NCBI GenBank assembly: GCA_947631295.1
Contig: CANRKU010000003.1
Coordinates: 4,313 to 68,312 of the forward strand
Source: an uncultured Bacilli bacterium
Lineage (GTDB): Bacteria > Bacillota_I > Bacilli_A > RF39 > UBA660
Direction of reading: 5' to 3'
DNA length: 64,000 nt
Both the position numbers and the translations under genes were made by a program. Shown piece by piece: positions 1 to 25,563 of this stretch (its first letter is position 1; the number at the start of each line of letters is the position of its first letter). Under the pieces are notes generated by a model. It did not search any database and was not told where the DNA came from. It saw nothing but the letters and a program-made list of their open reading frames with translations.

Positions 1-823
1 CTTCAGTATCTTCAAATAAACCTAAAGCAAGTCCTGCAAAATAATCAGCTGATGTTTTTTCCCAAAATGGATCAGCATTTCCTGATTTTTCTTCATATAG
101 AATATTAGCAGCCAAATCATCTAATAATTCGATAGCTTTATCAAAATTACCATTTTTATACATCCTATAAGGAAGAGATAATGGATTCCAAGCACTACCT
201 TCTTGCGGATCACGGAAATTTAAAACTAACACTTCATATCCTTTATCACGTAACATATTAGAGGTTTGTTCATAAATCTCACCTTTAGGATCAGTAATAA
301 TCATAGATTCTCTATTTTTAGCTAAAATTTCTACAGTTGGAAAAATAATTGTTTGTGTCTTACCAGAACCAGTAGCACCAATAACTAAGTTATGATATTC
401 ACCATTATCAACCCATACTTGGTTATTTTTCATAAACAAAGGAACCCCACCAGCATTAGACTTATCATCATTAATATTAATCATTTCTACTTTTGATTCT
501 GCTTTTATTTCTTTTTCTTTTGCCCATCTACTGTATCCTTTACTAGATTTCTCTCCAATAGAAAAACCTAAACCACTTTCTCTTTCAAAGAAATAAGATG
601 AAACAGACATAAATATACCTGCTAAAAACAAGAAATAAAAAACTAAAGTTGTAACAATCCTATCAGGCGCTAAAGCAGGAAGCGGATTCAATCCATAAAA
701 ATGACCATTAATAGCAAGTTCAGGAAAATTTAAAATTCCTAAACAAACAATATAAAATAAAAATATGGAAAATATAACAAATATTAATACATCTGTAGCA
801 TCTGCTTTAAATTTCAATTTCAT
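1..823 (-). CDS. Type IV coupling protein (VirD4/TraG-like), N-terminal part; C-terminus lies beyond the window start
   Basis: Minus-strand translation from ATG at 823: MKLKFKADATDVLIFVIF... has two N-terminal TM helices, then the Walker A motif NLVIGATGSGKTQT typical of TraG/VirD4 T4CPs. The ORF is open to position 1. Confidence 0.75.
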   Translation of the reverse strand, partial: MKLKFKADATDVLIFVIFSIFLFYIVCLGILNFPELAINGHFYGLNPLPALAPDRIVTTLVFYFLFLAGIFMSVSSYFFERESGLGFSIGEKSSKGYSRWAKEKEIKAESKVEMININDDKSNAGGVPLFMKNNQVWVDNGEYHNLVIGATGSGKTQTIIFPTVEILAKNRESMIITDPKGEIYEQTSNMLRDKGYEVLVLNFRDPQEGSAWNPLSLPYRMYKNGNFDKAIELLDDLAANILYEEKSGNADPFWEKTSADYFAGLALGLFEDTE

Positions 824-880
824 ATTCCCAACTCCAATACGTCTATATTATATACAAAAAATTTATGAAACACAATAAAC

Positions 881-1660
881 TTAATCACAAAAATTAGCAA
901 TTTCTTTTCTTTTTCCAGATAATTCATATAAAATGGCACATTCTTTTTCAGGTTGTCCAAAATAATTCTGTGTAAATAATATTTCATATTTTTTATCATT
1001 TCTAATATCTAGTATCTTATGAATCTCAAATGATGGTTCATCATATATCTGATCCATAGAAATAACTTTAGATGCTAAAATAGTATTAGTATTATTTTTA
1101 TGAAGGAAAATAATAGAAAAAACTTTATCAGAAATATTATCAACATAATAATTATTGATACAATAAATAGTTTCTAAACCACCATCATTATCCAAATCTA
1201 AATCAACTTTTTGAAAAAGATTAAAATTATCAGTATAAGAAATATCTAAAGAAGCTAATACATTTTGAATAATATAAATATCAGATTCACTCATTTCATT
1301 ATTGTGATCAATTCCTATCACATTTAATTTCAAAGTTCCATTATAGGCAAACAATGGACCAGTATAATCAACTGCCTTAGAAGAAAAATCATATAAATAA
1401 AAACGATTAGAAAATAATAATTTATAAACTCCTTTGTATTCATTATCATCATATACAGTAAATTCTTTTAATTTATAATCTTTACTATCACTTATATTAG
1501 ACCATGTACCATTTTCATATTTAATTTTTACAAAATTACCAGATAAAATATATAAATTATCATATTTATTACGCAAATAATTAGGTAAAAATAAAATAAG
1601 CATCACAACAAAATATAAAATGAATATAGATAAAATAATTTTTACATTTTTATTTTTCAT
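881..1660 (-). CDS. Hypothetical membrane-anchored extracytoplasmic protein (N-terminal TM). A VirB8-like scaffold is possible but unproven
   Basis: 259-aa ORF with a single N-terminal hydrophobic helix (ILSIFILYFVVMLILF). It sits between the T4CP and hydrolase genes. Confidence 0.45.
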   Translation of the reverse strand: MKNKNVKIILSIFILYFVVMLILFLPNYLRNKYDNLYILSGNFVKIKYENGTWSNISDSKDYKLKEFTVYDDNEYKGVYKLLFSNRFYLYDFSSKAVDYTGPLFAYNGTLKLNVIGIDHNNEMSESDIYIIQNVLASLDISYTDNFNLFQKVDLDLDNDGGLETIYCINNYYVDNISDKVFSIIFLHKNNTNTILASKVISMDQIYDEPSFEIHKILDIRNDKKYEILFTQNYFGQPEKECAILYELSGKRKEIANFCD

Positions 1661-1663: not shown

Positions 1664-4159
1664 CTAAACCTTCCTATAATATGCATAACCAACAATAGAA
1701 CCTAAACCATATGTTTCTCCAACCTCAGTTCCCTCAGATCCAGGATCGAGCATATATATCTTATTATTTTCTACTCTATCTACTGCAACCCAATGTCTAC
1801 CATTTTTAACATTTAATATTACATAATAACCTTGATCTACTAAATTAGATATCTCAGAAGGTTGTGCATTTTTAGTAACTCTATTTACAAACTGAAAATC
1901 TGGAGCAATAGAAGAAACTTTATCCCAATAAATATTCCCAATTCGATCAAAACCATTAATAGCTGTCATTCTTTGAGCAAAAGTTCCAGGATTAAATTCT
2001 TCATCGAGTAAAATAGAAGCACCAGATCGCATAATTTGAATACAAACGGAAGTCATTGCACATCCTATTTCACCTACTGTTTTATTTCCTAAAGGCACAT
2101 TGGACCATGCTTTATTATATTGTTTCCAACTAGAAAATTCACCCGCTACTGAAACACCATTACTATAACATAAATTATTACTATACTGACTTTCACTAAC
2201 AGGAACTATAGTACCATCCCAAGTCCCAATATCATAATCAGCTAAATTATATTTGTGAATAACACTAGCAACTTTACTAGCATAACTAGTATCTGTAGCA
2301 TAACCATGATCAACAAGACAATTTAATTGTTCCTCATAAGAGCCATAGACATTACAATTATAAGAGTCAGCTAGCAAACGTGAATGATCACGAGCAGAAT
2401 TTGCAAAAGAATCATAAATACGATACCATTGACAATCTCCACCAGATTTATTACACATAGCTACTACAGAACCATTCCAGAATGCATTACCTTGACAAGA
2501 ATTGCCTCCTTCCCCAGCTTGATAAACAACACCAGAACTATTATCAGGAGAACTAGGCGGTGCACAATTTCCAGCTGTCATTCCATAATAATTAGAATAT
2601 TGAGCACTTAAAGTACTAGAACCATTTCCACTTTCCAAGGCAGCCTGTGCAAGTGTAATTGAAGCAAAAACACCAGTTCTAGTCATCTCTTCTATGGCAA
2701 CAGGAGAAGCATTTTCTAAAAATTGCGTTCTTGATTGACTACTTTCTCCACCACCATAAAATTCTGCTCCTTCATCACTACGGCAAATATAAGAACTAGT
2801 CATAGAACAAGATTGACTAGGTCCTATATCATTATATAAAAGATATATTTCTTCAGCAATTTCTTTGGCTTTTTCTTTCTTTTCTGCCTCATTGCTTGGT
2901 AAATATTCAGCATAATATTCAGGAATAAAACTATTTACCAAATTCCAATAAAAGACAGAATCCTCCATTGTAGATAAATCACCAATACTAAGTTCTGCTT
3001 GTTCACTAGGTAAGTTTCCACATGTAAGTACTTTCTTTTTCCCACCATGATCATCAGGAATTTCTATTTCATAGGGTGCCGGTTGATATAAATGAAATTC
3101 ATAATTTCTCTCTTCATCTGTCTTTTTAGTAAAAAATGCACTAAAACCAGTTAAATCATGTTGTGCTACTAATTCAGGAGTAGAACTATCCAACCCATTA
3201 GAAGAAAAATAAGAAAATGAATTTTCATCATATGAATCGGCATTATCTGCAGTTACTAAAACATCATTTGCAGTACCAGCATCACAACGACCACTATAAC
3301 GAGAAGTTAAATTTTTATTCCAACCATATCTTTTTCTTTTAATCTGCATATTTGCCAATAATTTTACCTGTTTTATCATCTTTTTATAAGGAATATTATT
3401 AGTATCAATTTCTCCACTTTCATCAGGACTTTGTCCTTCCGTCAAGAAATCATCCATAGACATATCAACAGTTAAAGATGCAGTAATTAAGTTAACATCT
3501 ACACATACACGAGTGCTTCTACTAATTTGAGATTGAACTTTTTCTAATTCTTCATAATATTCTTGTTCCCATTCCTGTAAATCTTTTGTAAAAAGACCAA
3601 TAAAGAAATCACCAACATCTGTAAAAAAATTATGTACTGCTGTAACAGGACTAATAACTATAACTAAAATCAAGATAATAAAAAGTAACATTAATAAAAA
3701 ACTACCACCGATAGTAATGAACAAAATCTTATGATTTTTAGCATAAGAGAATATTGCATTAAAATAAGAAACACCATTAGATTCTTCACTATCAGCTTCT
3801 GTAGAATTAGAAGAAGGGACATTGAGTTTAGTAGGTAAAGAAGAACCAGATGATTTCTCATCTTTCTCACTATTTTCTTTTTCTTCTTTTCCATCATCTA
3901 AATCATTCTCCGACTTACCAGTACCAGTTACAGTTTTTTCTTGATTCAATGGATTTGTTTTCTTTCCCATTGCAGGATTAACAGGGTTTAATGCTTTTGA
4001 TCCTGCATTTAATAAGGAATTTCCAACTTTTGTTTTATTAGCAAGATCAACTGCTTTACCAGCAAATGGACCAGCAACTGCATTAGCACCAGCTTTTAAA
4101 CCAGTTGTGGCTGTTTTTTTGGTTGATTCTTGTTCTTTTTGCTTGTTTTCATCATCCAT
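1664..4159 (-). CDS. Bifunctional cell-wall hydrolase of a Gram-positive T4SS (CwlT/TcpG/VirB1-like): glucosaminidase/lysozyme-like domain plus C-terminal CHAP/NlpC-P60-like domain
   Basis: 831 aa with a low-complexity N-terminus and one TM helix. The motif ITLAQAALESGNGSS matches the FlgJ/glucosaminidase AQAALESGWG signature. The C-terminal Cys/His region (GEIGCAMTS ... GRHWVAVD) is consistent with a CHAP/NlpC-P60 peptidase. Confidence 0.7.
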   Translation of the reverse strand: MDDENKQKEQESTKKTATTGLKAGANAVAGPFAGKAVDLANKTKVGNSLLNAGSKALNPVNPAMGKKTNPLNQEKTVTGTGKSENDLDDGKEEKENSEKDEKSSGSSLPTKLNVPSSNSTEADSEESNGVSYFNAIFSYAKNHKILFITIGGSFLLMLLFIILILVIVISPVTAVHNFFTDVGDFFIGLFTKDLQEWEQEYYEELEKVQSQISRSTRVCVDVNLITASLTVDMSMDDFLTEGQSPDESGEIDTNNIPYKKMIKQVKLLANMQIKRKRYGWNKNLTSRYSGRCDAGTANDVLVTADNADSYDENSFSYFSSNGLDSSTPELVAQHDLTGFSAFFTKKTDEERNYEFHLYQPAPYEIEIPDDHGGKKKVLTCGNLPSEQAELSIGDLSTMEDSVFYWNLVNSFIPEYYAEYLPSNEAEKKEKAKEIAEEIYLLYNDIGPSQSCSMTSSYICRSDEGAEFYGGGESSQSRTQFLENASPVAIEEMTRTGVFASITLAQAALESGNGSSTLSAQYSNYYGMTAGNCAPPSSPDNSSGVVYQAGEGGNSCQGNAFWNGSVVAMCNKSGGDCQWYRIYDSFANSARDHSRLLADSYNCNVYGSYEEQLNCLVDHGYATDTSYASKVASVIHKYNLADYDIGTWDGTIVPVSESQYSNNLCYSNGVSVAGEFSSWKQYNKAWSNVPLGNKTVGEIGCAMTSVCIQIMRSGASILLDEEFNPGTFAQRMTAINGFDRIGNIYWDKVSSIAPDFQFVNRVTKNAQPSEISNLVDQGYYVILNVKNGRHWVAVDRVENNKIYMLDPGSEGTEVGETYGLGSIVGYAYYRKV

Positions 4160-4194: not shown

Positions 4195-5982
4195 CTATAA
4201 TCCTCCACCAGAACCAAAAGATTCTAACTCTTCAGGAGTAACGATTACATTAATTCTCATACGTCTATTTCCACAAACAAATAATGCTTCTCCTTGGGAA
4301 TAACGCTTAATACTTTCTTTTTCACTTTCATTTAAATCAATCAAACGGCTTAAATCATCAACAGCCTGTTTTTTAAGTCCCATTACCAAGTAATAAGACG
4401 CATTATCAAAAATTGCCTTACCATGAACAATTACACTAGGAGCTGCAAAATCACTAGGTTGTTGCGTTATAATAATAGAACCAGTATTATATTTACGAGC
4501 ACGACGTTGTACTTGTGCTAAAAACTCTGCACCAAGTGCATTGCTTCCAGAAAGTAATACATGAGCTTCATCTACCATTAAACAAGTATTAATACTTTTA
4601 TCTAAACATAAACCCCAAGCATATTTTAAAATATTAAAAAATAAGGCATTACGAATATTATCAGCTGAATTCATCAACTCTTTAATATTAAATACTATAA
4701 AATCAGTATTTGGATTAACAGTTGTATGACCATCAAAATAATATTTTAATTCTTGTGTCAATGGTCTAATCTTTAGTTCCAATTTTTCCATAATTGCACG
4801 TTCCTGAGTTTGTTCTGTCATTGATAAAAGTCTACCTTTAATAGTTTCATATACATCAGAAAAAGTTGGATAATCATTCGCTTGATAATGATAAAAATTA
4901 CTATTAAAATCAATTCCAAACCTTCTATAAGTATCCTGAACGATTTCACTAAACATCGTAAGAACATCTTCTTCAATAGATGGATCATAATATCTCATAA
5001 AACCTTTTAAAAATTGAAGTGTTCTAGTCAAAACAGTATATCCCAATCCTTCTTTAATTTCATCTTCATCAGCATCAATTACGATCTGTAATGGATTAAC
5101 CATACCATATTCTCCACCTTTACCAAGATCGATAGATTCTCCACCAAAATTAGATGCCATTTCAAAAAGTTCATTTTCTGGATCTATCGCAACAATTTGA
5201 TATCCATTACGAATATGGCTTCTTACCATTAATTTAGCAGCTGTAGATTTACCAGATCCAGAAGTACCTAAAATAACCAAATTTGCATTATTTCGATTAT
5301 TCTCTTTCTTTATTTGATATAAAAATTGGTTAAATAAAATAACTCCTCCTGAAAAATCTACTCCAAGTAGAGTGGATAATCCTGGATCCTTAATACTATC
5401 AAAAATAAAGGGATACATAGCTGCAATAGTTGGTGCAGGAATTGGTGTACCAATTCTCTGTTCTACATCTTGTTTTGGAAAAATAGGAACAATAGATTTT
5501 AATACTTTTTCTTGTTCAAAACGAAGAGCAACGCCTTTCATTTCCATCGCATCTAAATAATTTTTTACATTAATTTTCTTTAAATCTAACTCTTCTCTAG
5601 AATCGGCTGTAATCATAATATGCATCTGATAATCAAAAATTTTAGATTGGCTTCCTGCTAACATAGTAATAAAGGATTCCAAAGATTCATAATCTTGTCG
5701 AATTCTCTCTCTTGCAGTATTATCTCTTTCATCTTGATATCTAGTTTTTAAATCTGCAATTTGTTTATTAATCATTCTAGACATAGTTGAAAAAGGAATA
5801 GGAATATGTTTCGCAACTACTTTAACACCAGACATACTAGTTAATGATGACAAATATCCTGGATAAATATATTTAGGATAGGATACTACTGTTAAAATAG
5901 TTGCATATTTTCCACTGACAACAAAGTCACTTGGATTAAATTGTAGCCCCTTTGGAGCAACCTCGGACTTAAAAATACTCAT
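4195..5982 (-). CDS. VirB4/TraE-like T4SS ATPase (ATPase domain)
   Basis: Walker A LVILGTSGSGKSTAAK and Walker B CLMVDEAHVLL. Size and motif layout match the CagE/TrbE/VirB4 family. Confidence 0.8.
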   Translation of the reverse strand: MSIFKSEVAPKGLQFNPSDFVVSGKYATILTVVSYPKYIYPGYLSSLTSMSGVKVVAKHIPIPFSTMSRMINKQIADLKTRYQDERDNTARERIRQDYESLESFITMLAGSQSKIFDYQMHIMITADSREELDLKKINVKNYLDAMEMKGVALRFEQEKVLKSIVPIFPKQDVEQRIGTPIPAPTIAAMYPFIFDSIKDPGLSTLLGVDFSGGVILFNQFLYQIKKENNRNNANLVILGTSGSGKSTAAKLMVRSHIRNGYQIVAIDPENELFEMASNFGGESIDLGKGGEYGMVNPLQIVIDADEDEIKEGLGYTVLTRTLQFLKGFMRYYDPSIEEDVLTMFSEIVQDTYRRFGIDFNSNFYHYQANDYPTFSDVYETIKGRLLSMTEQTQERAIMEKLELKIRPLTQELKYYFDGHTTVNPNTDFIVFNIKELMNSADNIRNALFFNILKYAWGLCLDKSINTCLMVDEAHVLLSGSNALGAEFLAQVQRRARKYNTGSIIITQQPSDFAAPSVIVHGKAIFDNASYYLVMGLKKQAVDDLSRLIDLNESEKESIKRYSQGEALFVCGNRRMRINVIVTPEELESFGSGGGL

Positions 5983-6524
5983 GCAGGCATCACCGTCCCG
6001 AATGTAGTGGTAGAACCACCATTTAAGAAATTATCTAAAATAATTCTTAAATCTTCATTATTTGTTTGACTAGCAATCAATCCTGCTGTTGATAAACCGC
6101 TAATAAGAGAACGCACTTTCTTTTGAAGAAGATCTACGTTTTTCTCTTTAAATAGTATAAAGTATTCCGTATCAACAACATTATTATTCATAAAGTAATT
6201 TCCTTTCTGAATATCTTGATTCAATAATTTACGAATCTGTGGATTTTGTTGATTTTGATATTGTAACTGTAATTGTGATAAATACACAGATATATCAACA
6301 GGTCTATCAGCAACTACTAACCAAAATTCATAATCAATAGTATTGTAAAAATTTCGAAGTGCAATTAATACATTATTTTGTGCATCATCATCTAAAATGA
6401 AGATATTTCTAGGAGTTACTTTCACTCCAGATACTTTTTCTTGATTAGGTAATATAATCATACCATTAGATATTGATTGAATATTAATCCAATCCTCTGT
6501 CCATTTACTTTGAGTCTGATTCAT
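5979..6524 (-). CDS. Probable N-terminal domain of VirB4, either a separate ORF or a split gene
   Basis: 181-aa soluble ORF whose stop overlaps the VirB4 ATPase start (ATGA overlap). 181+595 aa approximates a full-length Gram-positive VirB4. Confidence 0.4.
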   Translation of the reverse strand: MNQTQSKWTEDWINIQSISNGMIILPNQEKVSGVKVTPRNIFILDDDAQNNVLIALRNFYNTIDYEFWLVVADRPVDISVYLSQLQLQYQNQQNPQIRKLLNQDIQKGNYFMNNNVVDTEYFILFKEKNVDLLQKKVRSLISGLSTAGLIASQTNNEDLRIILDNFLNGGSTTTFGTVMPA

Positions 6525-6822
6525 CTAAAAAACACCAACCCTTCCATACATAACGATTCCTGCTAGTAAAATATTTATAAATTTCTACAAGTAATTGCCT
6601 AATGTTATGGTAATAGGCAACAGGAGTTACTAATAATGCACTAACAATTCCAGGCATAATAGCTAATACTGCTACCCATGTAATTGACATTGGTAAAATC
6701 ATTACCAAAATCAAAGTAGTAGTAATTCCAATTCCAAAAATGGCTAAATCAATGGGCATAAACCACCCAAGTATTAGCTGTCCTCTTTTTGTATTAGCAG
6801 GTATTAAATAATTATTATTCAC
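6505..6822 (-). CDS. VirB3/ConD-like small two-TM T4SS membrane protein
   Basis: 105 aa with two hydrophobic helices, immediately upstream of VirB4 as in ICEBs1 conD-conE. Confidence 0.4.
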   Translation of the reverse strand: MNNNYLIPANTKRGQLILGWFMPIDLAIFGIGITTTLILVMILPMSITWVAVLAIMPGIVSALLVTPVAYYHNIRQLLVEIYKYFTSRNRYVWKGWCFLDESDSK

Positions 6823-6850: not shown

Positions 6851-8764
6851 TTATGATTTTCCACCACTACCGCTAAATCTATCATTTTGTTCTTTTTTTG
6901 CATTTTCACGTTTAGCAGTAGCAATTTCAATAGATAAATTATCGATTGCACCATTAACAGAATCTCTATTAGTAACATGCAATCCAAGAGCCTCGGCTTC
7001 ACCAATATTAGCAGCTAAAATCTTATCTTGACTAGCTCCACGAATTAAATAATCCTCTTCATTTCCTTTTTGGATTAATCCTTGATATCTTTCTGCATCC
7101 GCCATAGAAATTTCTTGCGCACCATCAGAAGTCATAATAACAAATGATTTTTCACCAGCTGCTGCAGCAGCATTTTTACGTGCCATAAAGTCTTTATAAT
7201 TAATAGATCCTGTAACACCTTCACCCGCAACATCTGTCATTAAAGCATTACCATCTTTATCCAATAGAAAAGCTTGAGTCCAATCTTGTTTTACCATTTC
7301 TCCACTTACACGTGATTTAATAGTTTCAAGAGAACTCTTTTGAGCTTCAAGTGCTGCAATATTCCTTTTTCCTCTATTTGCCGCAGTTTCGCCTCCAACT
7401 AATCCTGATAAAGAAGAACCAGCCCTTCCCAATAAAGTTGATCCCGCAGCACCTGCTGCCAATACTCCAGAATTTCTTTTAGCTAAAGCATCCATTACAG
7501 CTTTTGTATTATGATCCTTTGCATTTACTGCTGCAGATACCCCAGCACCCAAACCACTAGCTGCTCCAAAAAGCCCAGCACCAACATTCTTCATTCCACG
7601 AAGAACATTATGATCCTTACCATTAGCCTCATCAGCAAGATAACTTGCTCTACCTGAAGCAATAGCTGAACCGAGTGCACCAAGACCGAGTGCACCAGCA
7701 GACATAACTTTACTTAACCCTCCAAATAACTTACCATTTTCATTTCTTTTAATTCCCATGGCATCACAAATAAACTTTGGAGCATCTTTAGCGAAGAATA
7801 ATAAACCAATAATAAGAGCTAATATTACTAATCCACCACGAACGCCACTATTACCAAATAGCTCACTAGTTAAATTGCCAATGACATTACTTTGGAATAA
7901 CTCATAAATGACTAAAAATATAAAATAAATACAACCCAATTTAATAAATAATTCTGTCCATACACTAATTACCATTTTTATCCATTTAGAAAAAGCTCCA
8001 TCTTTTGAAGATTTAGGATCAATATAACTAATAATAGGTATGGGAGCAATCAATTGTAATATAATGAGTTTAAAAACACGTACCGCAATATCAATACAAT
8101 ATCCAAGAATAATTAATGTCATTACAATAGCAGTAATCATTCCAACAATTGGTATATACTCATATTTATAGCTATTATTATCACCATCGACAGGTTCATT
8201 TATATAATCCGTTGCCTGAGAAACTGTATGGACCCCCTCTGGTAAATTTTCCCGATTGGTATTAAAAAACACACCATTATAAGTACTAAATGCAATATCA
8301 GAACCCATAGTAGATAAAGATTGACCTAAATTATCACCTGAATTAACATTTTTTTGTAATATTATTCTTGGTAATGCCTCAATAATATGAGGTTGCACAG
8401 TATTTAAGAAATGAAATCCTGTTGGGAAGAAAATTAACATTGCTAAAGCTACAATCACTCTCGTTGACATCTTTCCAACACCACGTTCTTTATCGTTAAT
8501 ACTATCTGGGTTCACTAAATAAGACAACATAGAAATGGTAATTTTAAATAGCATATAAATTGTAATTATGACATATATTCTAGACTGTATTCCTGTATAA
8601 AAAGTACTAAATGCATCGCTTGTACTAACTTGCGCAATATCAAAAACTAATTGCATTACCCAACCGAATAGAGTATAAGCCATAGAATCTAGCCATGAAA
8701 ACATTCCCCTAATAGCGTTCCAAATAAGACCTCTATTATACATAGTAAAAATTAATTTATTCAT
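6851..8764 (-). CDS. VirB6/TrbL-like polytopic membrane protein with a C-terminal Gly/Ala-rich repetitive tail
   Basis: 637 aa. The N-terminal 400 aa carry at least 6 TM helices. The C-terminal 230 aa are Gly/Ala-rich (GALGLGALGSAIASG, GLFGAASGLGAGVSAAV). Position and architecture resemble ConG/TcpH. Confidence 0.5.
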   Translation of the reverse strand: MNKLIFTMYNRGLIWNAIRGMFSWLDSMAYTLFGWVMQLVFDIAQVSTSDAFSTFYTGIQSRIYVIITIYMLFKITISMLSYLVNPDSINDKERGVGKMSTRVIVALAMLIFFPTGFHFLNTVQPHIIEALPRIILQKNVNSGDNLGQSLSTMGSDIAFSTYNGVFFNTNRENLPEGVHTVSQATDYINEPVDGDNNSYKYEYIPIVGMITAIVMTLIILGYCIDIAVRVFKLIILQLIAPIPIISYIDPKSSKDGAFSKWIKMVISVWTELFIKLGCIYFIFLVIYELFQSNVIGNLTSELFGNSGVRGGLVILALIIGLLFFAKDAPKFICDAMGIKRNENGKLFGGLSKVMSAGALGLGALGSAIASGRASYLADEANGKDHNVLRGMKNVGAGLFGAASGLGAGVSAAVNAKDHNTKAVMDALAKRNSGVLAAGAAGSTLLGRAGSSLSGLVGGETAANRGKRNIAALEAQKSSLETIKSRVSGEMVKQDWTQAFLLDKDGNALMTDVAGEGVTGSINYKDFMARKNAAAAAGEKSFVIMTSDGAQEISMADAERYQGLIQKGNEEDYLIRGASQDKILAANIGEAEALGLHVTNRDSVNGAIDNLSIEIATAKRENAKKEQNDRFSGSGGKS

Positions 8765-10533: not shown

Positions 10534-10558
10534 AAACTTCCTCCTCATCTACAAAACA

Positions 10559-17815: not shown

Positions 17816-17829
17816 AACAATTCCCCTTT

Positions 17830-18258: not shown

Positions 18259-18267
18259 ACATACCTC

Positions 18268-21200
18268 CTAACGTCCACCAAATATACTGGTATCGCAATT
18301 TGTACCATTAATAGCATTATTACATCCTGCAAGAAGCTTTCTATTGTCCATACTATATCCAGTAACACTATAAGTAATAAATGAATCACTTTCCTCCGTA
18401 CCACTATTACCGTTCACATTATCTAAAAATCTACTTGTACAAACTTGCATTCCTTTACTATTTTCATGACAACTCATATTATAATCTAAATAGTTTCGAT
18501 TTCCATCATTGTTATAATCCTTTACGTGCTTATTATAATCACGAATATTACGAATATTTTCTTTCGTCAAAACAAACTCATAATCGACTTCTGAAGAATC
18601 AACTGTAACATCGTAAATAGATTTTCCTTTATTTTGAATAACTGAGGTCAAAGCATCAGGATTAACATCTTCAGCACCATAATAGAATGAACGACTACTA
18701 TTTTTCGAAATAGCTGCACCAGTTGCTGTATCATTGATGATAGTTCCCGTCCAATTAAATCTAGGATCTCTGTTATTTGGGAATACATCTGTTAACTCTA
18801 TTGGTCTAAAAATATATTGAATACCTCCTAAAGATTTATCATCATCAAATGGACAAATTAATCCACAATCATCTGGAGAAGTACCATAGAAACATTGAAT
18901 ATCTACGCTATCATTATTAGAAACTTTACCCCATTGATTCCAAGTACCAATATTCTGTAACTCAACTTTAATATTTTTCTCATACTCAGCAGTTGATTTT
19001 GATAGAGGGATAGTTTCATCATAATAAGGCCATGTTTTATAGTTATTGATACCTAGTTTAGTAGCAAAACTAGTAAAATATTTATTATAAGGTCCAAAAT
19101 ATAAATAATTTTTGTCTTTTTCAGTATCCGTAAGCTCAACCGTTGTATTATAAACTACATCTTTAGCAGAATCTAAAGCACCCTTATCATTATTAAATGA
19201 ACCATCTCTAGTAATATAAGCAGCACCAATCTTCAAATTGATTGTTCTAGTTAAAGTATAACTATCAGTAGATAACCCATCTCTAACCCCACTTCTCTCT
19301 TCGGAATTTAAGCCACTTAAATCAGTATCATTTGAAACAGCAGCTATCACAACATTTGTACCAGTATTTTCATTGCGTTTAACATCGTCCGTTTCAGAAG
19401 AATAAATTCTATTACCAGATCCTGTATTACTAAATACGGTCTGAATAATATCATTTGTATTATATTTTTCATCAATAGTCATTGTATATATTTCATTTTT
19501 AAGTTTATCAGGATCAACTTTTTGAATAGCAGATAAAACATCCTTGTATTCTAGATAAGAATCTGTTACCTCATTGTAAAATTCACCAGTAGGATCATCA
19601 ACACAATCAGTACCGCTTCTAAATACTTCATAACATTTTGTAGCTTCATCTTCACTTGTTCCATTACAACTATCTAAATATACAAAATTTACATCATGCT
19701 CGGAAGTACATGATGTAGCATCACAAGTAATGCCACAAGGCCCTTCACCTGTTTCATTGTTATGATTCTCCTGCCACCAACCAGAATTGCTATTTCCAGA
19801 AACAACACATTCGCTACTAACAGGATTTAAGGTATGTGGATTACCTCGATTTTCTTTGGTTCCTCCAATCTTTGTTCTAGAATTTTGAGCAACAAAAATA
19901 GCTTGATAAGATTCCGTATTCGTACTCTTTAAAAAAGTACTTTCTGGTTTAATAGAAATACTACTAAGTTTATTATTCTTATATACTTTTTGATAGCAGG
20001 AATTAATACATTCTTGTGTATATGTCCCCTGATCACAAGTATCAATACAATCATCAAAATCTTGATTTGGCCCAGCTCCTGATTGTCCAGTATGATTAGT
20101 AGGTCCACCCCAACACTCAATTCCATATTGACATTCATCTTTTAAAATCGGTTGAGAAATTTGAATTGGTTGACAAGTTCTTTTAACAATAGCAGTAGCC
20201 TCATAACTAAAACCAGCCCCCGCCTGAACAGCTTTCGGAGTATCATATTCTAAATAAAGTTCTTCAGTACACATTGCACTCCAATATTTACCTTCTCTTA
20301 AAACTGTTTTATATGTTGCTACTGGTGCATTAGTATCAGTCTTCTTGTTTTGAGTTGCATCAAACTGACAAGTAAAAGTATCTATAGAGGCATTATTGTC
20401 AGGATTAATGTCAGCATTTAATATTTCGTTAACTAAATTCCATTTTTCATTGATATGAGCATCAAGATAAGTTAGTTTACTTTTAGAAATAGTTTCAGAA
20501 TAACAATCATATAAAAAATTAGCCAACCAATTGTTTCTACCTGGAAATCTTTCACGCATCCATTTACATATATCACTATTATAAAGTCTATTAGATACAT
20601 TAGAAGGAGTTACTCCTTGATAATATCCTAAATATGCATTACCACAAGCACCACCCAAATCTCCTTTAAATACCAAATAATATACAGTATCAGCTGGAAT
20701 CGTCATGGTAAAAGTACTTTTTCCAGCATCTCTCTTAATTATTCTATCATATCTTCGTGGTAATCCAGTAGCATCATCTACATTACAATTATCTTCAGCA
20801 CAATATTCAACAGTAATATTATCTGCTAAACTTATATATTTTTCACTTAAATCCATCGTAATTGTATAGCTCTCACCATTTAATTTTTGGGTCATAGTAT
20901 TTTTTAAAGTTCCAGCTGCATCATTATAAGATGGATGATAACATATAGTATACGTATAATTATTACCCTCAACAGCATCAATAGCGCAAGAAGAAAGTGT
21001 AGCATTAGCATCAAAACTATTTGCACCATTACATATAGGATTTACTCCTACTCCATTTGAGCAGGCACCATTAAATTTAGAACAGAAACAATTTTTTGGA
21101 CTATTATTACCAAATACATCACTTTTGATAATTGAATTAAGTGAGACATTGCTTCCTGCCCCAGAAATATCATAAGTAGTTCCCATAGCACCTACATAAA

Positions 21201-21369
21201 TATCATCAACTAAACAAATTGTTTTTCTTCCATTTTTTTCATTAATAACAGTATCCTTAGTAACAGTAAATTGGTCCAATTCCACAGCATTCACATTTTC
21301 TATAGACAACAATATCAATAAAAAAAAGAAAATAAAAGAATTTAGTTTTCTAAATAATCGGCAATTCAT
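18268..21369 (-). CDS. Large secreted Cys-rich protein, candidate adhesin or pilus-tip component
   Basis: 1033 aa with a signal peptide (cleavage near VNA|VE) and dozens of Cys in CxC/CxxC clusters. Rich in N, G and T. No C-terminal sorting signal. Confidence 0.6.
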   Translation of the reverse strand: MNCRLFRKLNSFIFFFLLILLSIENVNAVELDQFTVTKDTVINEKNGRKTICLVDDIYVGAMGTTYDISGAGSNVSLNSIIKSDVFGNNSPKNCFCSKFNGACSNGVGVNPICNGANSFDANATLSSCAIDAVEGNNYTYTICYHPSYNDAAGTLKNTMTQKLNGESYTITMDLSEKYISLADNITVEYCAEDNCNVDDATGLPRRYDRIIKRDAGKSTFTMTIPADTVYYLVFKGDLGGACGNAYLGYYQGVTPSNVSNRLYNSDICKWMRERFPGRNNWLANFLYDCYSETISKSKLTYLDAHINEKWNLVNEILNADINPDNNASIDTFTCQFDATQNKKTDTNAPVATYKTVLREGKYWSAMCTEELYLEYDTPKAVQAGAGFSYEATAIVKRTCQPIQISQPILKDECQYGIECWGGPTNHTGQSGAGPNQDFDDCIDTCDQGTYTQECINSCYQKVYKNNKLSSISIKPESTFLKSTNTESYQAIFVAQNSRTKIGGTKENRGNPHTLNPVSSECVVSGNSNSGWWQENHNNETGEGPCGITCDATSCTSEHDVNFVYLDSCNGTSEDEATKCYEVFRSGTDCVDDPTGEFYNEVTDSYLEYKDVLSAIQKVDPDKLKNEIYTMTIDEKYNTNDIIQTVFSNTGSGNRIYSSETDDVKRNENTGTNVVIAAVSNDTDLSGLNSEERSGVRDGLSTDSYTLTRTINLKIGAAYITRDGSFNNDKGALDSAKDVVYNTTVELTDTEKDKNYLYFGPYNKYFTSFATKLGINNYKTWPYYDETIPLSKSTAEYEKNIKVELQNIGTWNQWGKVSNNDSVDIQCFYGTSPDDCGLICPFDDDKSLGGIQYIFRPIELTDVFPNNRDPRFNWTGTIINDTATGAAISKNSSRSFYYGAEDVNPDALTSVIQNKGKSIYDVTVDSSEVDYEFVLTKENIRNIRDYNKHVKDYNNDGNRNYLDYNMSCHENSKGMQVCTSRFLDNVNGNSGTEESDSFITYSVTGYSMDNRKLLAGCNNAINGTNCDTSIFGGR

Positions 21370-22142
21370 TATTTAACCTCCCTATTTTCTTTAATTATAT
21401 CATAATTTTCATTTATGTAAACGGAATATTTTTCAATATTCTCATTTTTTCTTAATTTTCTAGCATCAACTTTAAACTGTGTTTTCCCAAATCGACCAAA
21501 ATATCTCGTACAAGTAATCAAAGATATTAACTCATCACTACTATCTACATCAACATCATAATCATAAATACTAGCATCTTTTACATTATTTATATATTTT
21601 TTTAACTCATCTTTATCACGATAACTTTCACCGATATCATCATCAGAATATAAAAAAGTAACTGCATAAATTTTATAAATATCATCTTTCCCATCATGAG
21701 TATATTGAATATATAGATTTTCTTTAGCAAAATCTTCATAAACAAAACCCATCAATTGTTCAAATCTAGTATGTTCTTCTCCATTAATAATTGGATTACT
21801 ACTAACATTTAAGATATTATGTCCATAAATAGCAGTTCTATTTTCACCTTCTTTATAACTATTAGTTCTCCATACATAATCTATTCCAGTAGCATAAGCA
21901 TTATTAGTTTCACTAATTACAGGATAATCAATATTTGTACCTTGTACTTGAATCCACCCTACTGTCTCAGCATCAGCTATTTTATAAGTATTCGTTAAAT
22001 CTATCCTAGACTCAAAAGTATAATAATCCTCTTTTTTCACCAAATTAGAATTTTTTAAGAATAGAATAGAAATAACTAATCCGATTAATATAATAACTAG
22101 TAAACTAGCGCATAATATCATTCTTTTTATTGACTTCTTCAT
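21369..22142 (-). CDS. Sortase family transpeptidase (class B-like)
   Basis: N-terminal TM anchor. Catalytic His in AIYGHN, Cys in LISLITCTRY (TLxTC motif), downstream Arg (DARK). Confidence 0.7.
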   Translation of the reverse strand: MKKSIKRMILCASLLVIILIGLVISILFLKNSNLVKKEDYYTFESRIDLTNTYKIADAETVGWIQVQGTNIDYPVISETNNAYATGIDYVWRTNSYKEGENRTAIYGHNILNVSSNPIINGEEHTRFEQLMGFVYEDFAKENLYIQYTHDGKDDIYKIYAVTFLYSDDDIGESYRDKDELKKYINNVKDASIYDYDVDVDSSDELISLITCTRYFGRFGKTQFKVDARKLRKNENIEKYSVYINENYDIIKENREVK

Positions 22143-22152
22143 GTAACACCTC

Positions 22153-23997
22153 TTATTTTACATAGTATGGATCAACACTAGTACCATTACCACTAGAAAT
22201 TTTAGCTGTATTCTTTAAATAAAATACGATTTTAAATGCATTGGAATCATAAAATCCTTTACCAATATTAAAAGTTCTACCATTTGAGCTATTAATCATA
22301 AATGCATTTTGTTCATCAACATAATCTAATAACCAGTAATTAACTTGAGAATTATAAGATTCATTAACTCCAGAAAATAATTCAAAACTAGATGGAATAC
22401 TCAATTTACTTTTAAAAGTACTATCTACTTTATAATGAGTATAATCAACATTCTCATCATATTGATAAAGAGAATAATCGTGATTAACAATCAAACTATC
22501 ATCAATAAAATCAATATATTCATTATTTAATTGATAACCAATATTTCCTTCTTGTTTAGGATTAAATTTCATAATATTATCTTCATTTTGATAACTAGAA
22601 TAAAAATATTTTTGTGTTGAAAGATTACCTAAATAAAGAACAGATACCAATTTTGTATTATGGTCTTCATCAAAACCACCAATTCTAAATATCATACCTG
22701 AATAGTTAATATATTCTCCTACTAATCTAGAATTAACTAAATCATGAGTTTTTCCATAAGAATAATCACCTAATCGATAAGGATTACCACTAGTACCATT
22801 ACCAGAAGTAATATATAAACCACTCTTTAAATTTAGTGCAGGTTTAGCTCCATTTAAAGATGTACTTTTAACCTCATCAATTCCTCCAGACATCATACTA
22901 TGAATATAAACATAATGAGCATTTTGTCGTGTTAATAACCAATATTCCCCAACAGTATTTAAATACGTAGCCCCATTTTCCATACTCTTATTCCAATCAG
23001 ATAATGTCAATAAGCCGACTTTATTGGTAGTGGTTGTTGTACAAGTATCAGATACATAATTTTCAAAATCTGCATAATCTAAACACCATTTACTATCTTG
23101 AACAACATATTGATCAGGATTATTTAAAGAATTATAAAAAGCCTTATTTAACCATACAGGAATATTACTCTTATCATAATCTGTTTCTAATGGTCCATAT
23201 GGAATATTAGAGATATTATCATAAGATACAATTTTAACACTTCCATCTTCATTGACATTAACAATTCTAAAAAGCATACCAGAAAATAATAGATAATTAT
23301 TAGGATTAAGTCCTCTATAATAATTACTATCATCTGTATTATTACGTACAATATCTGTTAAGTTTTGTGCTACTGTTACATTTCTAGTAACAACTGTCTT
23401 ATTAAAAGAATGATCACGAACAGTATAAGTAACTGGATAAGTCCCTATTTTAGTAATATCTACACTACTAGAATCAATAGTAACCAAACTAGCATCTAAA
23501 TCTCCATCTTTTTTATCATAAACTTTACTAACTCCTAATTCCTGATATTCACTACCTAAAGGGATAATTATATCAATATCACCATTTAAAGTAATTTCTG
23601 GGCCATCATGATCAATATGAGATTGAAATCTTCCACATTTTAGATAAGTAGCATATTGATACTCTCCATCTTCATTTTGATATACTCTAACCCAACTTTG
23701 TTCACTATCGCAAGTTTTTCTAGTTTTAGGTATATATAATGTATTAATATGTTCAGAATCATATAAATTTTGAAGCGTAATTTCTCTAGTTTCTCCTTTC
23801 TTTGGCAAATACATTTCATTAAATTCATAATAACGCTTAGCAGCATCTAGAAAATCTTTTTCTTGATTATGAAAAATATAATAACGGGAGAAAAAGAAAA
23901 CCCAAGATAACCATCCAACCAAAATAAGAGCTAACCCAACCACAACAGCAAAAAAAGCTTTTTTATTTTTTCTTAACTTAAGTATTATTTTTTTCAT
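22153..23997 (-). CDS. Large surface protein with an N-terminal signal-anchor
   Basis: 614 aa. One TM near the N-terminus (FFAVVVGLALILVGWLSWVFFF), the rest is Asn/Tyr/Ser-rich extracellular sequence. No LPXTG. Confidence 0.5.
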   Translation of the reverse strand: MKKIILKLRKNKKAFFAVVVGLALILVGWLSWVFFFSRYYIFHNQEKDFLDAAKRYYEFNEMYLPKKGETREITLQNLYDSEHINTLYIPKTRKTCDSEQSWVRVYQNEDGEYQYATYLKCGRFQSHIDHDGPEITLNGDIDIIIPLGSEYQELGVSKVYDKKDGDLDASLVTIDSSSVDITKIGTYPVTYTVRDHSFNKTVVTRNVTVAQNLTDIVRNNTDDSNYYRGLNPNNYLLFSGMLFRIVNVNEDGSVKIVSYDNISNIPYGPLETDYDKSNIPVWLNKAFYNSLNNPDQYVVQDSKWCLDYADFENYVSDTCTTTTTNKVGLLTLSDWNKSMENGATYLNTVGEYWLLTRQNAHYVYIHSMMSGGIDEVKSTSLNGAKPALNLKSGLYITSGNGTSGNPYRLGDYSYGKTHDLVNSRLVGEYINYSGMIFRIGGFDEDHNTKLVSVLYLGNLSTQKYFYSSYQNEDNIMKFNPKQEGNIGYQLNNEYIDFIDDSLIVNHDYSLYQYDENVDYTHYKVDSTFKSKLSIPSSFELFSGVNESYNSQVNYWLLDYVDEQNAFMINSSNGRTFNIGKGFYDSNAFKIVFYLKNTAKISSGNGTSVDPYYVK

Positions 23998-24000
23998 ATA

Positions 24001-25563
24001 TTATTCTCCTTTCAAAGTATAAAAATACTGATAAGTACGGATAGTAAATACAAAATCTATCTTATTACTATTTTGAATTTCATCAGGAACGGTAAAATAT
24101 AAATAACCACCACGATAATTTTTATTAACAGCATTCTTTAAAGTTATCCATTTATATTCTCCATCAATTTCATAGCGGATTTTTCCATATTTGAGGAAAA
24201 AATTTAAAAATTCTTGTTTAGTTTCGCTTTCATAGGTTCCTTTAATATACAAAATCTTTTGTCCCGGAAGAGCATTTACTGTACCCTGATAGATAGGACA
24301 ACTATCAGGGCTACATTCTTGATAAGTATAATAAGCACTATCTAATAACTGATAACTAGAAAGTTGAAAAGTCATACTTTCTAATAAATTAATAGGAATC
24401 GTAAAAGTTTGATTGATACTAGACTGACCTTTTTCTTTAAAAGAACTAATATCTTGTACCTTCATTTTAACACGAATTAATTTTCCATCTCCACTTACAT
24501 CTTGATACTTTAATATAAAGTTAGCATCTTCTGAAGGTTTAGGAACCTCATAAATAAGTAGATAAGAGGTTTTTTCCTTTGCTTTTAAAGATTGTTCAAT
24601 AAATAAATTACCCATATCTGAAAAATAAGAATTAAATCTAGTAGTAGGAACATAATAATCATTATCCACAAACAATAACATTTTTTGAATATCAAAATCT
24701 CTAGAAATAGAAAGTAAATTTTCAATATTCAAATCTACTAAAATAAAATAAGTATTTTGAGTCGTAATAATATTACCGGTAAAATCTTTATCTGTTAAAT
24801 AGGTATGACTAACCTTAATTTTATAATTATTCGATTCAAATGTCTGATTCATGTTATAGATTTTATTTTCAACAAAGAAATATTGATATACATTAAAACC
24901 AAAGATTGCAAACACAATAGCAAAAACAATGGATAACGAAACAGTATGTTCTAAGAAAAAATATTTAAAGTAACGTAATCGATATTTTAATTTACGAAGA
25001 TAACGATCTTTATCAAAACCAACCTGTACCTCTATTTCTTCACGATCACTCTCGTTAATCTCTGCAAACTCTTTATCTTCTTGAAATCCAAAATTTTTTA
25101 AATCAATTCCAATGGAACGAATTAATAAAATGAAAAGCATTGGATAATAAAATAAAGTAGAAATAAATAACAAGTCATTCACAATTTTAATCGCAATTAA
25201 ATTATATCCTTCTACTACTTGATAAGTAAAATAATTATCAGTATATAGAAAGAAAGCAAAAGTAAGAAAATTAGCAACTAAAATATAAACATAACTAAGA
25301 TATGGTTTATCTTTATATCGAAGCAAATAAATTAAAATGCCAGAAATAACTATAGTAGCAATAAAAGCTAAATAAATATAGATATTAGCATAGTGCTGAA
25401 TAGAATCGATAGCAGGATTATAAATACTAGTTTCTAAATAAGTATTTACAAATTGATGAATTTGCAAGTTTTGATAAAAAATAATTCCAACAAGGAGTAG
25501 TAACAAAATATTAATTTTCTGAAAGTACTTAATTAAAAAAGCATATGGCTTTCTAAGTATCAT
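24001..25563 (-). CDS. Polytopic membrane protein with a large C-terminal extracytoplasmic domain. First gene of the array
   Basis: 520 aa. The N-terminal 220 aa have about 6 TM helices and the C-terminal 300 aa are soluble. Confidence 0.5.
   Translation of the reverse strand: MILRKPYAFLIKYFQKINILLLLLVGIIFYQNLQIHQFVNTYLETSIYNPAIDSIQHYANIYIYLAFIATIVISGILIYLLRYKDKPYLSYVYILVANFLTFAFFLYTDNYFTYQVVEGYNLIAIKIVNDLLFISTLFYYPMLFILLIRSIGIDLKNFGFQEDKEFAEINESDREEIEVQVGFDKDRYLRKLKYRLRYFKYFFLEHTVSLSIVFAIVFAIFGFNVYQYFFVENKIYNMNQTFESNNYKIKVSHTYLTDKDFTGNIITTQNTYFILVDLNIENLLSISRDFDIQKMLLFVDNDYYVPTTRFNSYFSDMGNLFIEQSLKAKEKTSYLLIYEVPKPSEDANFILKYQDVSGDGKLIRVKMKVQDISSFKEKGQSSINQTFTIPINLLESMTFQLSSYQLLDSAYYTYQECSPDSCPIYQGTVNALPGQKILYIKGTYESETKQEFLNFFLKYGKIRYEIDGEYKWITLKNAVNKNYRGGYLYFTVPDEIQNSNKIDFVFTIRTYQYFYTLKGE

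Follow-up and report, generated by a model that had tools for sequence, protein, structure and literature searches.

The present analysis concerns a stretch of 64,000 nucleotides (nt) from an uncultured Bacilli bacterium of the RF39 lineage (contig CANRKU010000003.1 of assembly GCA_947631295.1), hereafter the window, to which all coordinates refer, and in particular a gene array that occupies positions 1-25563 on its minus strand. We found that this array brings together, in one operon, the core of a conjugation-type type IV secretion system (T4SS) with a Tad-like filament module made up of a secretion ATPase, two platform proteins, a CpaB-like protein and small pilin-like proteins, accompanied by a sortase and large surface proteins. 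An earlier reading made from the letters alone (the sequence-only reading) had described 23 consecutive co-directional genes with minimal gaps. The array is real, but it comprises 22 consecutive open reading frames (ORFs), one of which is a lineage-specific insertion. They are read from position 25563 down to position 1, where the last ORF is truncated by the edge of the window, and the gaps between them range from -20 to 114 nt (median 14), the two largest bordering the inserted gene at 12405-13763. The individual features are listed in Table 1. Conservation of the array was counted in the 80 best loci, with flanks reaching 10 kb, and searches of related loci covered 160 loci. The T4SS core and the Tad-like module were co-conserved, and the array was collinear in 80/80 species loci wherever the flanks reach, except in two loci (L010 and L043) that are considered below.

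Components of the secretion system and the filament module

Both the VirD4-like coupling protein and the VirB4 ATPase proposed in the sequence-only reading were confirmed. The type IV coupling protein (T4CP), whose N-terminal part is present in the window, has a full length of 746 amino acids (aa) on another contig of the same strain (L004), and this full-length protein reached 311 bits on NF045973 against a cut-off of 250. The scores of VirB4 on NF045975 and on the CD1110 family model (177 bits) were both under the equivalog cut-offs; on P-loop_TraG it scored 45 bits, which is above the cut-off, and a match to AAA_10 was also obtained. Because both small ORFs upstream of VirB4 match N-terminal parts of the same 894-position NF045975 model, the VirB3-VirB4 protein is predicted to be split into three ORFs here. 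The first of these small proteins (181 aa) carries a precomputed annotation as PF26593 (TraC-like) and resembles the 227-aa product of the gene upstream of VirB4 on the Bacillus thuringiensis plasmid pBMB67 (hhalign, 97%), and the second (105 aa), VirB3-like by position and topology, gave 41% in hhalign with the PrgI-family protein of that plasmid.

The VirB6-like call was supported by several matches, every one of them under its curated cut-off, and by an hhalign value of 55% to gene 49 of plasmid pLS20. The VirB2-like calls stood in the same way, with sub-cut-off matches of two hairpin proteins to T4SS_pilin. A hairpin loop motif is common to these two proteins, and in the 118-aa protein the loop is invariant (DLGKAV.SSD.KE.K.A...LIKR) and is accompanied by conserved terminal Cys residues. 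The gene for the 118-aa protein occupies the position of the pilin-like gene Mbov_0395 of mycoplasma integrative and conjugative elements (ICEs), that is, upstream of VirB6 (Mbov_0395 match, E 0.21). For the hydrolase, which had been called CwlT-like, the function holds by virtue of the glucosaminidase domain, and FlgJ and peptidoglycan hydrolase matches were found in the PDB, but its C-terminal domain is not CHAP and gave a hint of Peptidase_C39 at E 0.02 only. The 259-aa protein encoded next to the T4CP is weakly conserved in relatives (25-54% identity) and is absent from loci L145 and L168.

With regard to the Tad-like half, the ATPase that had been assigned to the CpaF/TadA class is a T2SSE protein, ambiguous between TadA and VirB11. 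Its C-terminal ∼115 residues (15570-15920) form a disordered, low-complexity tail rich in Pro, Thr, Asn and Ser, and this tail is the main cause of variation in the lengths of its homologs (365-752 aa). The predicted CpaB, encoded right before it, was confirmed through its SAF and RcpC domains; it also matched TIGR03177 (E 4e-8, 32.7 bits, under the 71-bit cut-off) and aligned with plasmid SAF proteins at 99.6-99.7% in hhalign. CpaB-like proteins accompany Tad machines.

Searches of Pfam, NCBIfam and PHROGs gave no match for the two platform proteins proposed as a TadB/TadC pair. When 1.84 billion representative proteins were searched with the profile built on the 297-aa family, no more than 255 were recovered, most of them fragments, and none bridged to T2SSF. 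Their identity was reached by way of the ATPase, whose best plasmid relatives led to a plasmid of Priestia koreensis, the genes neighbouring the ATPase there being compared by hhalign. The 297-aa family aligned with the Priestia T2SSF protein (96.8%, E 2.8e-10, 240 columns), and the 261-aa family with the product of the gene that follows it (97.3%, E 1.9e-11), with h244 of pBMB67 (94.5%) and with the pLS20 gene 39 family (91%). On Pfam T2SSF the Priestia protein itself, at 24.2 bits, falls short of the cut-off of 25.2, and a homolog search started from it recovered just that protein. The 297-aa and 261-aa families showed weak N-terminal similarity only when compared with each other. An AlphaFold2 model of the 297-aa protein from a shallow alignment (at least 81% identity) was unusable (pLDDT 55.9) and was rescued with six distant homologs. 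Taken together, the predicted TadB/TadC pair is confirmed by profile comparison and modelled fold, beyond the reach of any standard hidden Markov model (HMM).

The sequence-only reading had also listed a TadE-like pseudopilin and a tiny pilin-like ORF, and pilin-like N-termini were indeed seen. The 58-aa peptide is near-invariant across 71 species (MK(E/A)ATGELN(M/L)TV(V/I)T..IAI.A.I.FFW.MWP) and has an Flp-type size and layout, in which a hydrophobic helix comes after a short polar leader whose last residue is Gly; the EY motif is absent. The N-terminus of the 164-aa protein is conserved as MRDA.GG...YLAF.VNYTKAFRVKN, and its family aligned with that of pLS20 gene 40 (hhalign, 71%, E 3.6e-5). 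The DUF5411 protein likewise has a prepilin-like N-terminus, and the counterpart at the same position on the Priestia plasmid (WP_242176368) is named 'DUF5411 family protein' by NCBI. The TadZ-like assignment of the 322-aa protein found no support past a BcsQ match at E 0.005: its profile retrieved nothing from the PDB, and hhalign probabilities to plasmid ParA-like genes were ≤4%. Its gene is conserved in 71/80 loci. Direct HMM searches of Pfam, NCBIfam and PHROGs identified no Flp, TadE or TadZ. The module had been called a complete Tad/Flp set, and this did not hold, as no prepilin peptidase was found and TadZ is unconfirmed. We therefore describe it as predicted to be Tad-like in its motor, platform and CpaB-like protein and not as a complete canonical Tad locus.

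The sortase, the 1033-aa Cys-rich protein, the 614-aa surface protein and the 520-aa polytopic protein all stood as described. The sortase scored 56 bits on TIGR03064, under the cut-off, and its TCTR cysteine motif and IDAR arginine are conserved. The 520-aa protein found no match in Pfam or NCBIfam, and its gene is kept at the head of the array in 69/80 loci. Divergent from the array lies a gene for an exported thioredoxin-fold protein similar to exported disulfide isomerases, found beside the array in 28/80 loci, where locus reach is short; its product is a probable accessory factor, which would be consistent with the folding of Cys-rich exported parts.

Table 1. Features of the array and the adjoining divergent gene, in order of position in the window (TM, transmembrane; E, E-value)
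Feature	Position	Strand	Length (aa)	Basis or remarks
Type IV coupling protein (VirD4-like, CD1115 family), N-terminal part	1..826	-	275	PF02534, 82 bits on the fragment
Protein with N-terminal membrane anchor (one TM segment)	881..1660	-	259	No family match
Cell-wall hydrolase	1664..4159	-	831	Membrane anchor; glucosaminidase domain (residues 486-639; PF01832, 87 bits); Cys/His C-terminal domain
VirB4 ATPase, C-terminal ATPase part	4195..5982	-	595	NF045975 (mycoplasma-ICE VirB4), 345 bits, profile positions 297-893
Soluble protein, N-terminal domain of fused VirB3-VirB4 proteins	5979..6524	-	181	NF045975 positions 99-276, E 5.6e-13
Two-TM protein, VirB3-like by position and topology	6505..6822	-	105	NF045975 positions 2-96, E 0.084 only
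VirB6-like channel protein, polytopic, long low-complexity C-terminal tail	6851..8764	-	637	MMCAP2_0566/Mbov_0396 ICE TM protein E 1e-10; TrbL_4 E 0.004
Secreted protein ending in VirB2/TrbC-like two-helix hairpin	8769..10127	-	452	T4SS_pilin (PF18895) E 0.003, residues 369-432
VirB2/TrbC-like hairpin protein (T4SS pilin-like)	10192..10548	-	118	PF18895 E 4e-4, under cut-off
Cytoplasmic protein	10623..11591	-	322	BcsQ E 0.005 only, residues 158-198
Pseudopilin-like protein	11616..12110	-	164	Conserved N-terminus: short polar leader ending in GG, then hydrophobic helix
Flp-sized pilin-like peptide	12128..12304	-	58	Near-invariant across 71 species
Polytopic membrane protein	12405..13763	-	452	At least 9 TM segments; lineage-specific insertion, outside the conserved array
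TadC-like platform protein (divergent T2SSF family)	13878..14663	-	261	hhalign to plasmid counterparts
TadB-like platform protein (divergent T2SSF family)	14663..15556	-	297	hhalign to Priestia T2SSF protein
Secretion ATPase, TadA/CpaF-VirB11 group	15570..16958	-	462	PF00437 (T2SSE), 95 bits, cut-off 24.9
CpaB-like protein	16988..17815	-	275	Membrane anchor, SAF and RcpC; RcpC 29.6 bits, cut-off 28.8
DUF5411 protein	17830..18258	-	142	PF17424, 167 bits; prepilin-like N-terminus M(S/N)KG, then hydrophobic helix
Secreted Cys-rich protein, candidate adhesin	18268..21369	-	1033	Signal peptide; 36 Cys
Membrane-anchored sortase, class-B-like	21369..22142	-	257	PF04203, 30.4 bits
Signal-anchored surface protein	22153..23997	-	614	Ig-like domain (PF16403, 62.5 bits); DUF6273
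Membrane protein, first gene of the array	24001..25563	-	520	5 TM segments; large C-terminal extracytoplasmic domain
Exported thioredoxin-fold thiol-disulfide oxidoreductase, divergent from the array	25670..26083	+	137	Thioredoxin match; PedC/BrcD E 2e-7; weak TraF and TrbB matches

Relatives on conjugative plasmids and other known systems

The closest plasmid counterparts of the ATPase were found in the pLS20 family and those of VirB4 on B. thuringiensis plasmids of ∼68 kb, for example pBMB67. The pLS20-family operon corresponds to genes 34-54 of Bacillus subtilis plasmids (Val-Calvo et al. 2021, PMC8557374). It runs from an adhesin (g34) through g36 (a small N-terminally anchored protein), 'VirB11' (g37), the membrane proteins g38 and g39, the small TM proteins g40 and g41 and the two-TM hairpin protein g45 to a CD1115-family T4CP, followed by VirB6, a VirB3-like protein and VirB4, and then a hydrolase, so that the component set is the same as in the array and the order is similar. 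Identities between the array and pLS20 were 32% for the ATPase (E 1e-44), 27% for the T4CP (E 6e-54) and 22% for VirB4 (E 1.5e-33), and the g38 family aligned with the Priestia T2SSF protein at 81% in hhalign. On the other hand, pLS20 is a plasmid with a relaxase, an origin of transfer (oriT) and quorum-sensing control, it has neither a CpaB-like gene nor a sortase, the adhesin that it encodes is of the thioester-domain type, and its T4CP precedes VirB6.

In the case of pBMB67 (NC_009841), VirB4 was 29% identical (E 1.5e-90) and the T4CP 33% identical to the array proteins. The plasmid encodes a relaxase, a T4CP, TrbL, PrgI, the 227-aa protein and VirB4; further downstream are genes for a SAF/CpaB protein, a ParA-like ATPase, a T2SSE ATPase, 305-aa and 244-aa membrane proteins, an 89-aa peptide and DUF4320. 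Comparison of the two modules by hhalign gave 99.6% for the CpaB-like, 92% for the TadB-like and 94.5% for the TadC-like proteins. The order differs from that of the array in that the Tad-like genes come after those of the T4SS, ∼4-9 kb downstream, with a regulator between. The pBMB67/pAW63 group also differs from the array in being plasmid-borne, in having a MobP3 relaxase and a single-ORF VirB4, and in lacking a sortase. In the published table for pAW63 (PMC1196294), CDS22 ('VirB11') is followed by conserved hypothetical proteins of 278 and 250 aa, which is the layout of the array, and a Paraclostridium plasmid has the same layout, with a 'VirB11' ATPase, two membrane proteins and small TM proteins within its transfer region. 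The module on the Priestia koreensis plasmid encodes, in order, DUF5411, SAF/CpaB, a ParA-like protein, CpaF/VirB11, a 'type II secretion system F family protein', a hypothetical protein and DUF4320. It lies within 149.5-169.5 kb of NZ_CP061869, downstream of genes for a replication-relaxation protein and a large T4CP.

The candidate adhesin ties the array to the same plasmids. Residues ∼850-947 of the 1033-aa protein match the C-termini of a 993-aa protein of the Priestia plasmid (90%) and of pBMB67 h851 (83%), and weakly that of pLS20 Tie; the large surface proteins of Priestia and pBMB67 that carry this module occupy the same position as the 1033-aa protein. By inference, this C-terminal module of ∼100 residues may be a docking site that attaches variable adhesins to the machine.

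A VirB11 homolog in such plasmids had been reported before. In 2005 it was described for pAW63/pXO2-like plasmids (PMC1196294), and in the pLS20 family g37 was called a VirB11 homolog, unusual for Gram-positives, with g36 and g38-g41 given as unknown and pilus components stated to be absent (PMC8557374). Thus, the premise of the sequence-only reading that no mating-pair formation system of Firmicutes has a VirB11/TadA-class ATPase is incorrect, although a review of December 2025 still states that Gram-positive T4SSs universally lack VirB11 and encode no conjugative pili. No description of the platform, CpaB-like or pilin-like partners in these systems, nor of DUF5411 or DUF4320, was found in the searchable literature, and nothing relevant was found on RF39 together with T4SS or pili. 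The suggestion of an undescribed hybrid is therefore only partly tenable: homologous T4SS and ATPase/platform modules exist in pLS20, pAW63/pXO2-like plasmids and pBMB67, whereas their Tad-like nature appears to have gone unrecognised. Profile comparison showed the 'unknown' genes flanking 'VirB11' in this plasmid lineage to be homologs of the platform and pseudopilin genes of the array, and the pBMB67 module has a CpaB-like gene as well. The ATPase, the T2SSF-fold platform and the pilin-like subunits, to which several members add a CpaB-like protein, give this Gram-positive T4SS lineage the parts list of a type IV filament, and the rule that Gram-positive T4SSs lack VirB11 or pili appears to be wrong for a large family.

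Several other systems were compared. Judging from the model matches, mycoplasma ICEs (Mbov_0395/0396/0397; CDS5, CDS16 and CDS17) are probably further relatives of the T4SS lineage of the array. They provide the best curated models for VirB4, for the VirB6-like protein and, faintly, for the hairpin protein, with array scores all below equivalog cut-offs, and they share the order pilin-like, VirB6-like, VirB3-VirB4. They differ in being mobile (with a DDE transposase), in having no ATPase/platform module and no hydrolase, and in the VirB3-VirB4 protein, which is divided among three ORFs in the array. The likeness to Tad/Flp loci lies in a T2SSE ATPase about equally near CpaF, FlaI and VirB11, in two single-domain T2SSF-fold proteins right after it, in the CpaB-like SAF and RcpC protein right before it, and in a ∼55-aa pilin-like peptide with pseudopilin-like proteins. 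The differences are that the array has no prepilin peptidase and no match to Flp or TadE HMMs, that its platform proteins are highly divergent and that its module is always linked to T4SS genes. The same concept, a T4SS with a type IV filament that gives contact or recipient specificity via variable adhesins, is known from the R64/TP114 thin pilus and from PAPI-1 of Gram-negative bacteria (discussed in PMC4027160, PMC9045228 and PMC12857230). These, however, are type IVb pili of diderms with a separate gene ancestry, and the sequence relationship is at superfamily level at most.

Distribution and chromosomal setting

Relatives of the ATPase (60-91% identity) were found in at least 581 species-representative genomes. 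Nearly all of these are metagenome-assembled genomes (MAGs), deposited as uncultured Bacilli, Tenericutes, Mollicutes, Erysipelotrichaceae, 'Mycoplasma sp. CAG:877', Candidatus Scybalousia and Faecimonas, which we take to be members of GTDB order RF39 and its neighbours. Across related loci the core is well conserved (VirB4 ∼75% identity, ATPase 60-90%, platform proteins 60-90%), whereas the exposed parts diverge much further: identity is mostly 30-45% for the 1033-, 614- and 520-aa proteins and the 452-aa hairpin protein, and ∼30-35% for VirB6. This pattern would fit a machine with diversifying exposed parts.

The sequence-only reading had taken the array for the transfer module of an ICE, with its right edge near 25.6 to 26.2 kb and a relaxase and an integrase expected beyond position 1. 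In favour of this, the component types are all typical of conjugative elements, rearranged variants of the array exist, and the assemblies of the same strain break into short contigs (L004-L008) just past the T4CP, a common occurrence where DNA is repeated or mobile. Housekeeping genes do begin right of the array as had been stated: the thioredoxin-fold gene is followed by rseP (26165-27211), cdsA and uppS. But what lies past the T4CP on the other side is a surface-protein gene in this strain and housekeeping genes in relatives. Among 48 informative metagenomic loci, rhodanese, RmuC and TrpS genes were found downstream of the T4CP in 30/48, 28/48 and 16/48, respectively; other genes found there in relatives encode DedA, RNase R, SmpB, Tig and Lon, and a Pfam scan of 119 further downstream ORFs revealed housekeeping functions such as GTPases, tRNA synthetases and glycolytic enzymes. 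No relaxase was detected in the array, past the T4CP on the contig of this strain or, across the 160 loci, within 10 kb, and neither the MobV relaxase of the window nor the pLS20 relaxase, used as queries, had a homolog in any of these loci; the only recombinase match was one weak serine recombinase, ∼6 kb downstream, in locus L149. In addition, pairwise identities of the T4CP correlated with those of the adjacent RmuC (r = 0.87) about as those of VirB4 did with those of the T4CP (r = 0.84), and the array (G+C 0.23-0.33) and its flanks overlap in G+C content, with no sharp compositional contrast in a window that is AT-rich throughout. Because of the housekeeping synteny, the lack of a linked relaxase and the co-divergence of T4CP and RmuC, these comparisons indicate that the array is most probably a vertically inherited chromosomal locus and not an ICE. 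We regard the ICE reading, already largely refuted, as very improbable.

Further surface proteins were often observed beside the T4CP. In this strain, the gene after the T4CP (L004, 4074-6386) encodes a 770-aa surface protein, in whose C-terminus we read what may be an FGE-sulfatase-like motif pattern, and in 16 relatives the T4CP is followed by a ∼400-aa DUF6273-like protein resembling the C-terminus of the 614-aa protein of the array.

Proposed function and alternative explanations

On the basis of these results, the explanation that we favour, and that we consider fairly probable, is a chromosomally fixed conjugation-type T4SS of the pLS20/pAW63-pXO2-like/pBMB67 lineage joined to a Tad-like filament module, which would carry out contact-dependent DNA export with a wall-spanning (pseudo)pilus presenting adhesins. 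From the small pilin-like subunits, the ATPase and the platform pair would build a short (pseudo)pilus across the wall. The filament would present the large variable surface protein or proteins, docked via their conserved C-terminal module, so that cell-cell contact is made or tightened, and the T4CP/VirB4/VirB6 channel, aided by the hydrolase, would then export a cytoplasmic substrate. Export of cytoplasmic cargo is suggested because a conjugative-type T4CP has been retained; the likeliest substrate would be relaxase-bound DNA of elements that lack a T4SS, such as the MobV element of the window, or possibly chromosomal DNA. Filament formation, the display of adhesins on the filament and DNA as the substrate are the three points that we infer from the genes, whereas the comparisons establish what the genes are, their homology to experimentally conjugative plasmids, their joint conservation and their chromosomal setting with no linked relaxase.

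Several observations weigh against this explanation. First, the ATPase cannot be assigned to the TadA or the VirB11 subfamily by score: it reached 122 bits on the VirB11 and 100 bits on the TadA-family model, both under cut-off, 93 bits on TrbB, and 70, 67 and 65 bits in comparison with the PDB structures of CpaF, FlaI and VirB11, respectively. Second, neither the Flp (PF04964) nor the TadE (PF07811) model matched the 58-aa, 164-aa or DUF5411 proteins, and no A24-like prepilin peptidase is encoded in the array or the related loci; a small polytopic gene of the Priestia plasmid, a candidate for the peptidase, had no homolog in the window or in the 160 related loci, so that a peptidase, if there is one, would be encoded elsewhere in the genome. 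Third, a sorting-signal pattern search found no LPXTG-type C-terminal signals among the window ORFs. A sortase-assembled pilus, which would have LPXTG-type pilin substrates and a class C sortase, does not match the array either, whose sortase is class-B-like. Fourth, the array has no linked relaxase within 10 kb and no oriT assigned to it, and for this reason DNA transfer is an assumption. Finally, the relatives are all metagenome-assembled genomes, and the arrangement itself varies, as detailed in the following.

In loci L010 (12881-21007) and L043, the array stops after the TadC-like gene and continues with housekeeping genes (aminopeptidase, NusA). The two halves are also ordered differently in certain lineages, as they are in pBMB67. 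One such arrangement places the T4CP ∼4 kb upstream of a gene resembling that of the 520-aa protein, with a secreted nuclease and holA between, and sometimes no VirB4 is present within 10 kb (rearranged loci L107, L112, L126, L131, L134 and L141); in other lineages VirB4 directly adjoins the T4CP. These structural variants could be real rearrangements or MAG misassemblies. Such variation, the absence of a T4SS half next to the Tad half in L010 and L043, and the permuted halves of pBMB67 would be expected if an adhesive Tad-like pilus with its surface proteins and a separate T4SS were two functionally independent neighbours. The Priestia plasmid points the same way: over the 57 kb inspected, it has a Tad-like module and a T4CP and no annotated VirB4 or VirB6. 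It would be unusual for such a module to work with nothing more than a T4CP. Nevertheless, the linkage persists from Bacillus plasmids to chromosomes despite identities that have fallen to 20-35%, and in pLS20, pAW63 and the Paraclostridium plasmid the conjugation operon itself contains the ATPase, platform and pilin-like genes, with the adhesin on one side of them and the T4CP/VirB6/VirB4 genes on the other. Moreover, the gaps in the array are minimal, a scan of 7000-26200 found no minus-strand terminator-like site in the intergenic gaps, and no demonstrably free-standing copy of the Tad-like module was found among relatives. It should be noted that the promoter and terminator scan gave little information in this AT-rich DNA (135 promoter-like sites, 141 expected). 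The T4SS and Tad-like halves are separable modules that stay linked, and their functional independence seems to us rather improbable.

A further alternative accepts the T4SS and the filament as one system and supposes a non-conjugative co-option, for delivery of proteins or effectors, for release or uptake of DNA, or for attachment to partner cells. In line with this, the array is conserved on chromosomes throughout the clade and no relaxase was found within 10 kb of it, the surface proteins diversify fast, and neighbouring genes often encode additional surface proteins (the DUF6273-like protein in 16 loci and the 770-aa protein in this strain). A similar argument has been made for the MPF_FATA-like T4SS of Patescibacteria (PMC12102498), which resembles the array in being chromosomal, widespread in a reduced-genome lineage and usually relaxase-less and in having VirB2-like T4SS_pilin proteins. 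It differs in that it belongs to another phylum, with no integrated ATPase/platform module reported and type IV pili encoded separately. However, a well-conserved T4CP of the conjugative CD1115 family has been kept in the array, the closest characterised relatives are all conjugative plasmids, no effector-like or toxin/immunity genes were seen inside the array, and relaxase-bearing mobilisable elements are present in the same genome. We therefore consider co-option of this kind unlikely, while rating it above the functional independence of the two halves, and prefer contact-dependent DNA export.

The preferred explanation can be extended to a broader and more tentative proposal, which we regard as possible though doubtful: the 'VirB11' of the whole lineage (pLS20, pAW63/pXO2-like plasmids, pBMB67 and the chromosomal arrays) would be the motor of a genuine Tad-like filament that serves as the mating organelle and that in gut Bacilli has become a domesticated, vertically inherited, relaxase-independent organelle for DNA exchange or contact. 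If this is true, the textbook statement that Gram-positive T4SSs have no VirB11-class ATPase and no pili would be wrong for a large family. Since pLS20 and pAW63 are genetically tractable, the filament hypothesis is directly testable. Its confirmation could help to explain the efficient liquid mating of pLS20, would show how the thick cell wall is bridged in Gram-positive conjugation and would suggest new targets against plasmid spread. An ATPase that scores between the TadA and VirB11 models would also make the lineage informative on how VirB11 entered T4SSs. Lastly, that hundreds of uncultured gut species have the array as a fixed part of their chromosomes, with no linked relaxase, parallels the T4SS of Patescibacteria and suggests a conserved function in cell-cell interaction or gene exchange in poorly understood gut bacteria.

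Some additional features of the window were also noted. The 452-aa polytopic protein encoded by the inserted gene at 12405-13763, which was found in 3/80 related loci and sits between the TadC-like and the pilin-like gene, gave a weak DUF7649 match only and none in a PDB search; by analogy, its location beside a pilin gene recalls pilin-modifying glycosyltransferases. At ∼57.5-64 kb lies a small integrated mobilisable element with a MobV (Mob_Pre) relaxase (60999-62381, minus strand), a SUKH/SMI1 immunity-like gene (57526-58419, minus strand) and a large serine recombinase that runs from 62617 (minus strand) off the end of the window. It has no T4SS of its own and, at a distance of 35 kb from the array, is a possible client of the chromosomal T4SS. 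A separate large serine recombinase (53286-54869, plus strand) lies outside this element, amid plus-strand genes at 50-57 kb. Between 49000 and 57000 the GC skew turns from negative to positive and back, coinciding with the plus-strand genes around a collagen-like gene and this recombinase, which suggests an inserted or inverted segment. CotE, SpoVS, collagen-like and BclA_C-like genes are also present in the window (30538-31080, ∼41.1 kb, 50450-51586 and 55074-55421), and these spore-related genes hint at sporulation or an exosporium in a reduced-genome gut lineage deposited as 'Tenericutes', 'Mollicutes' or uncultured Bacilli.

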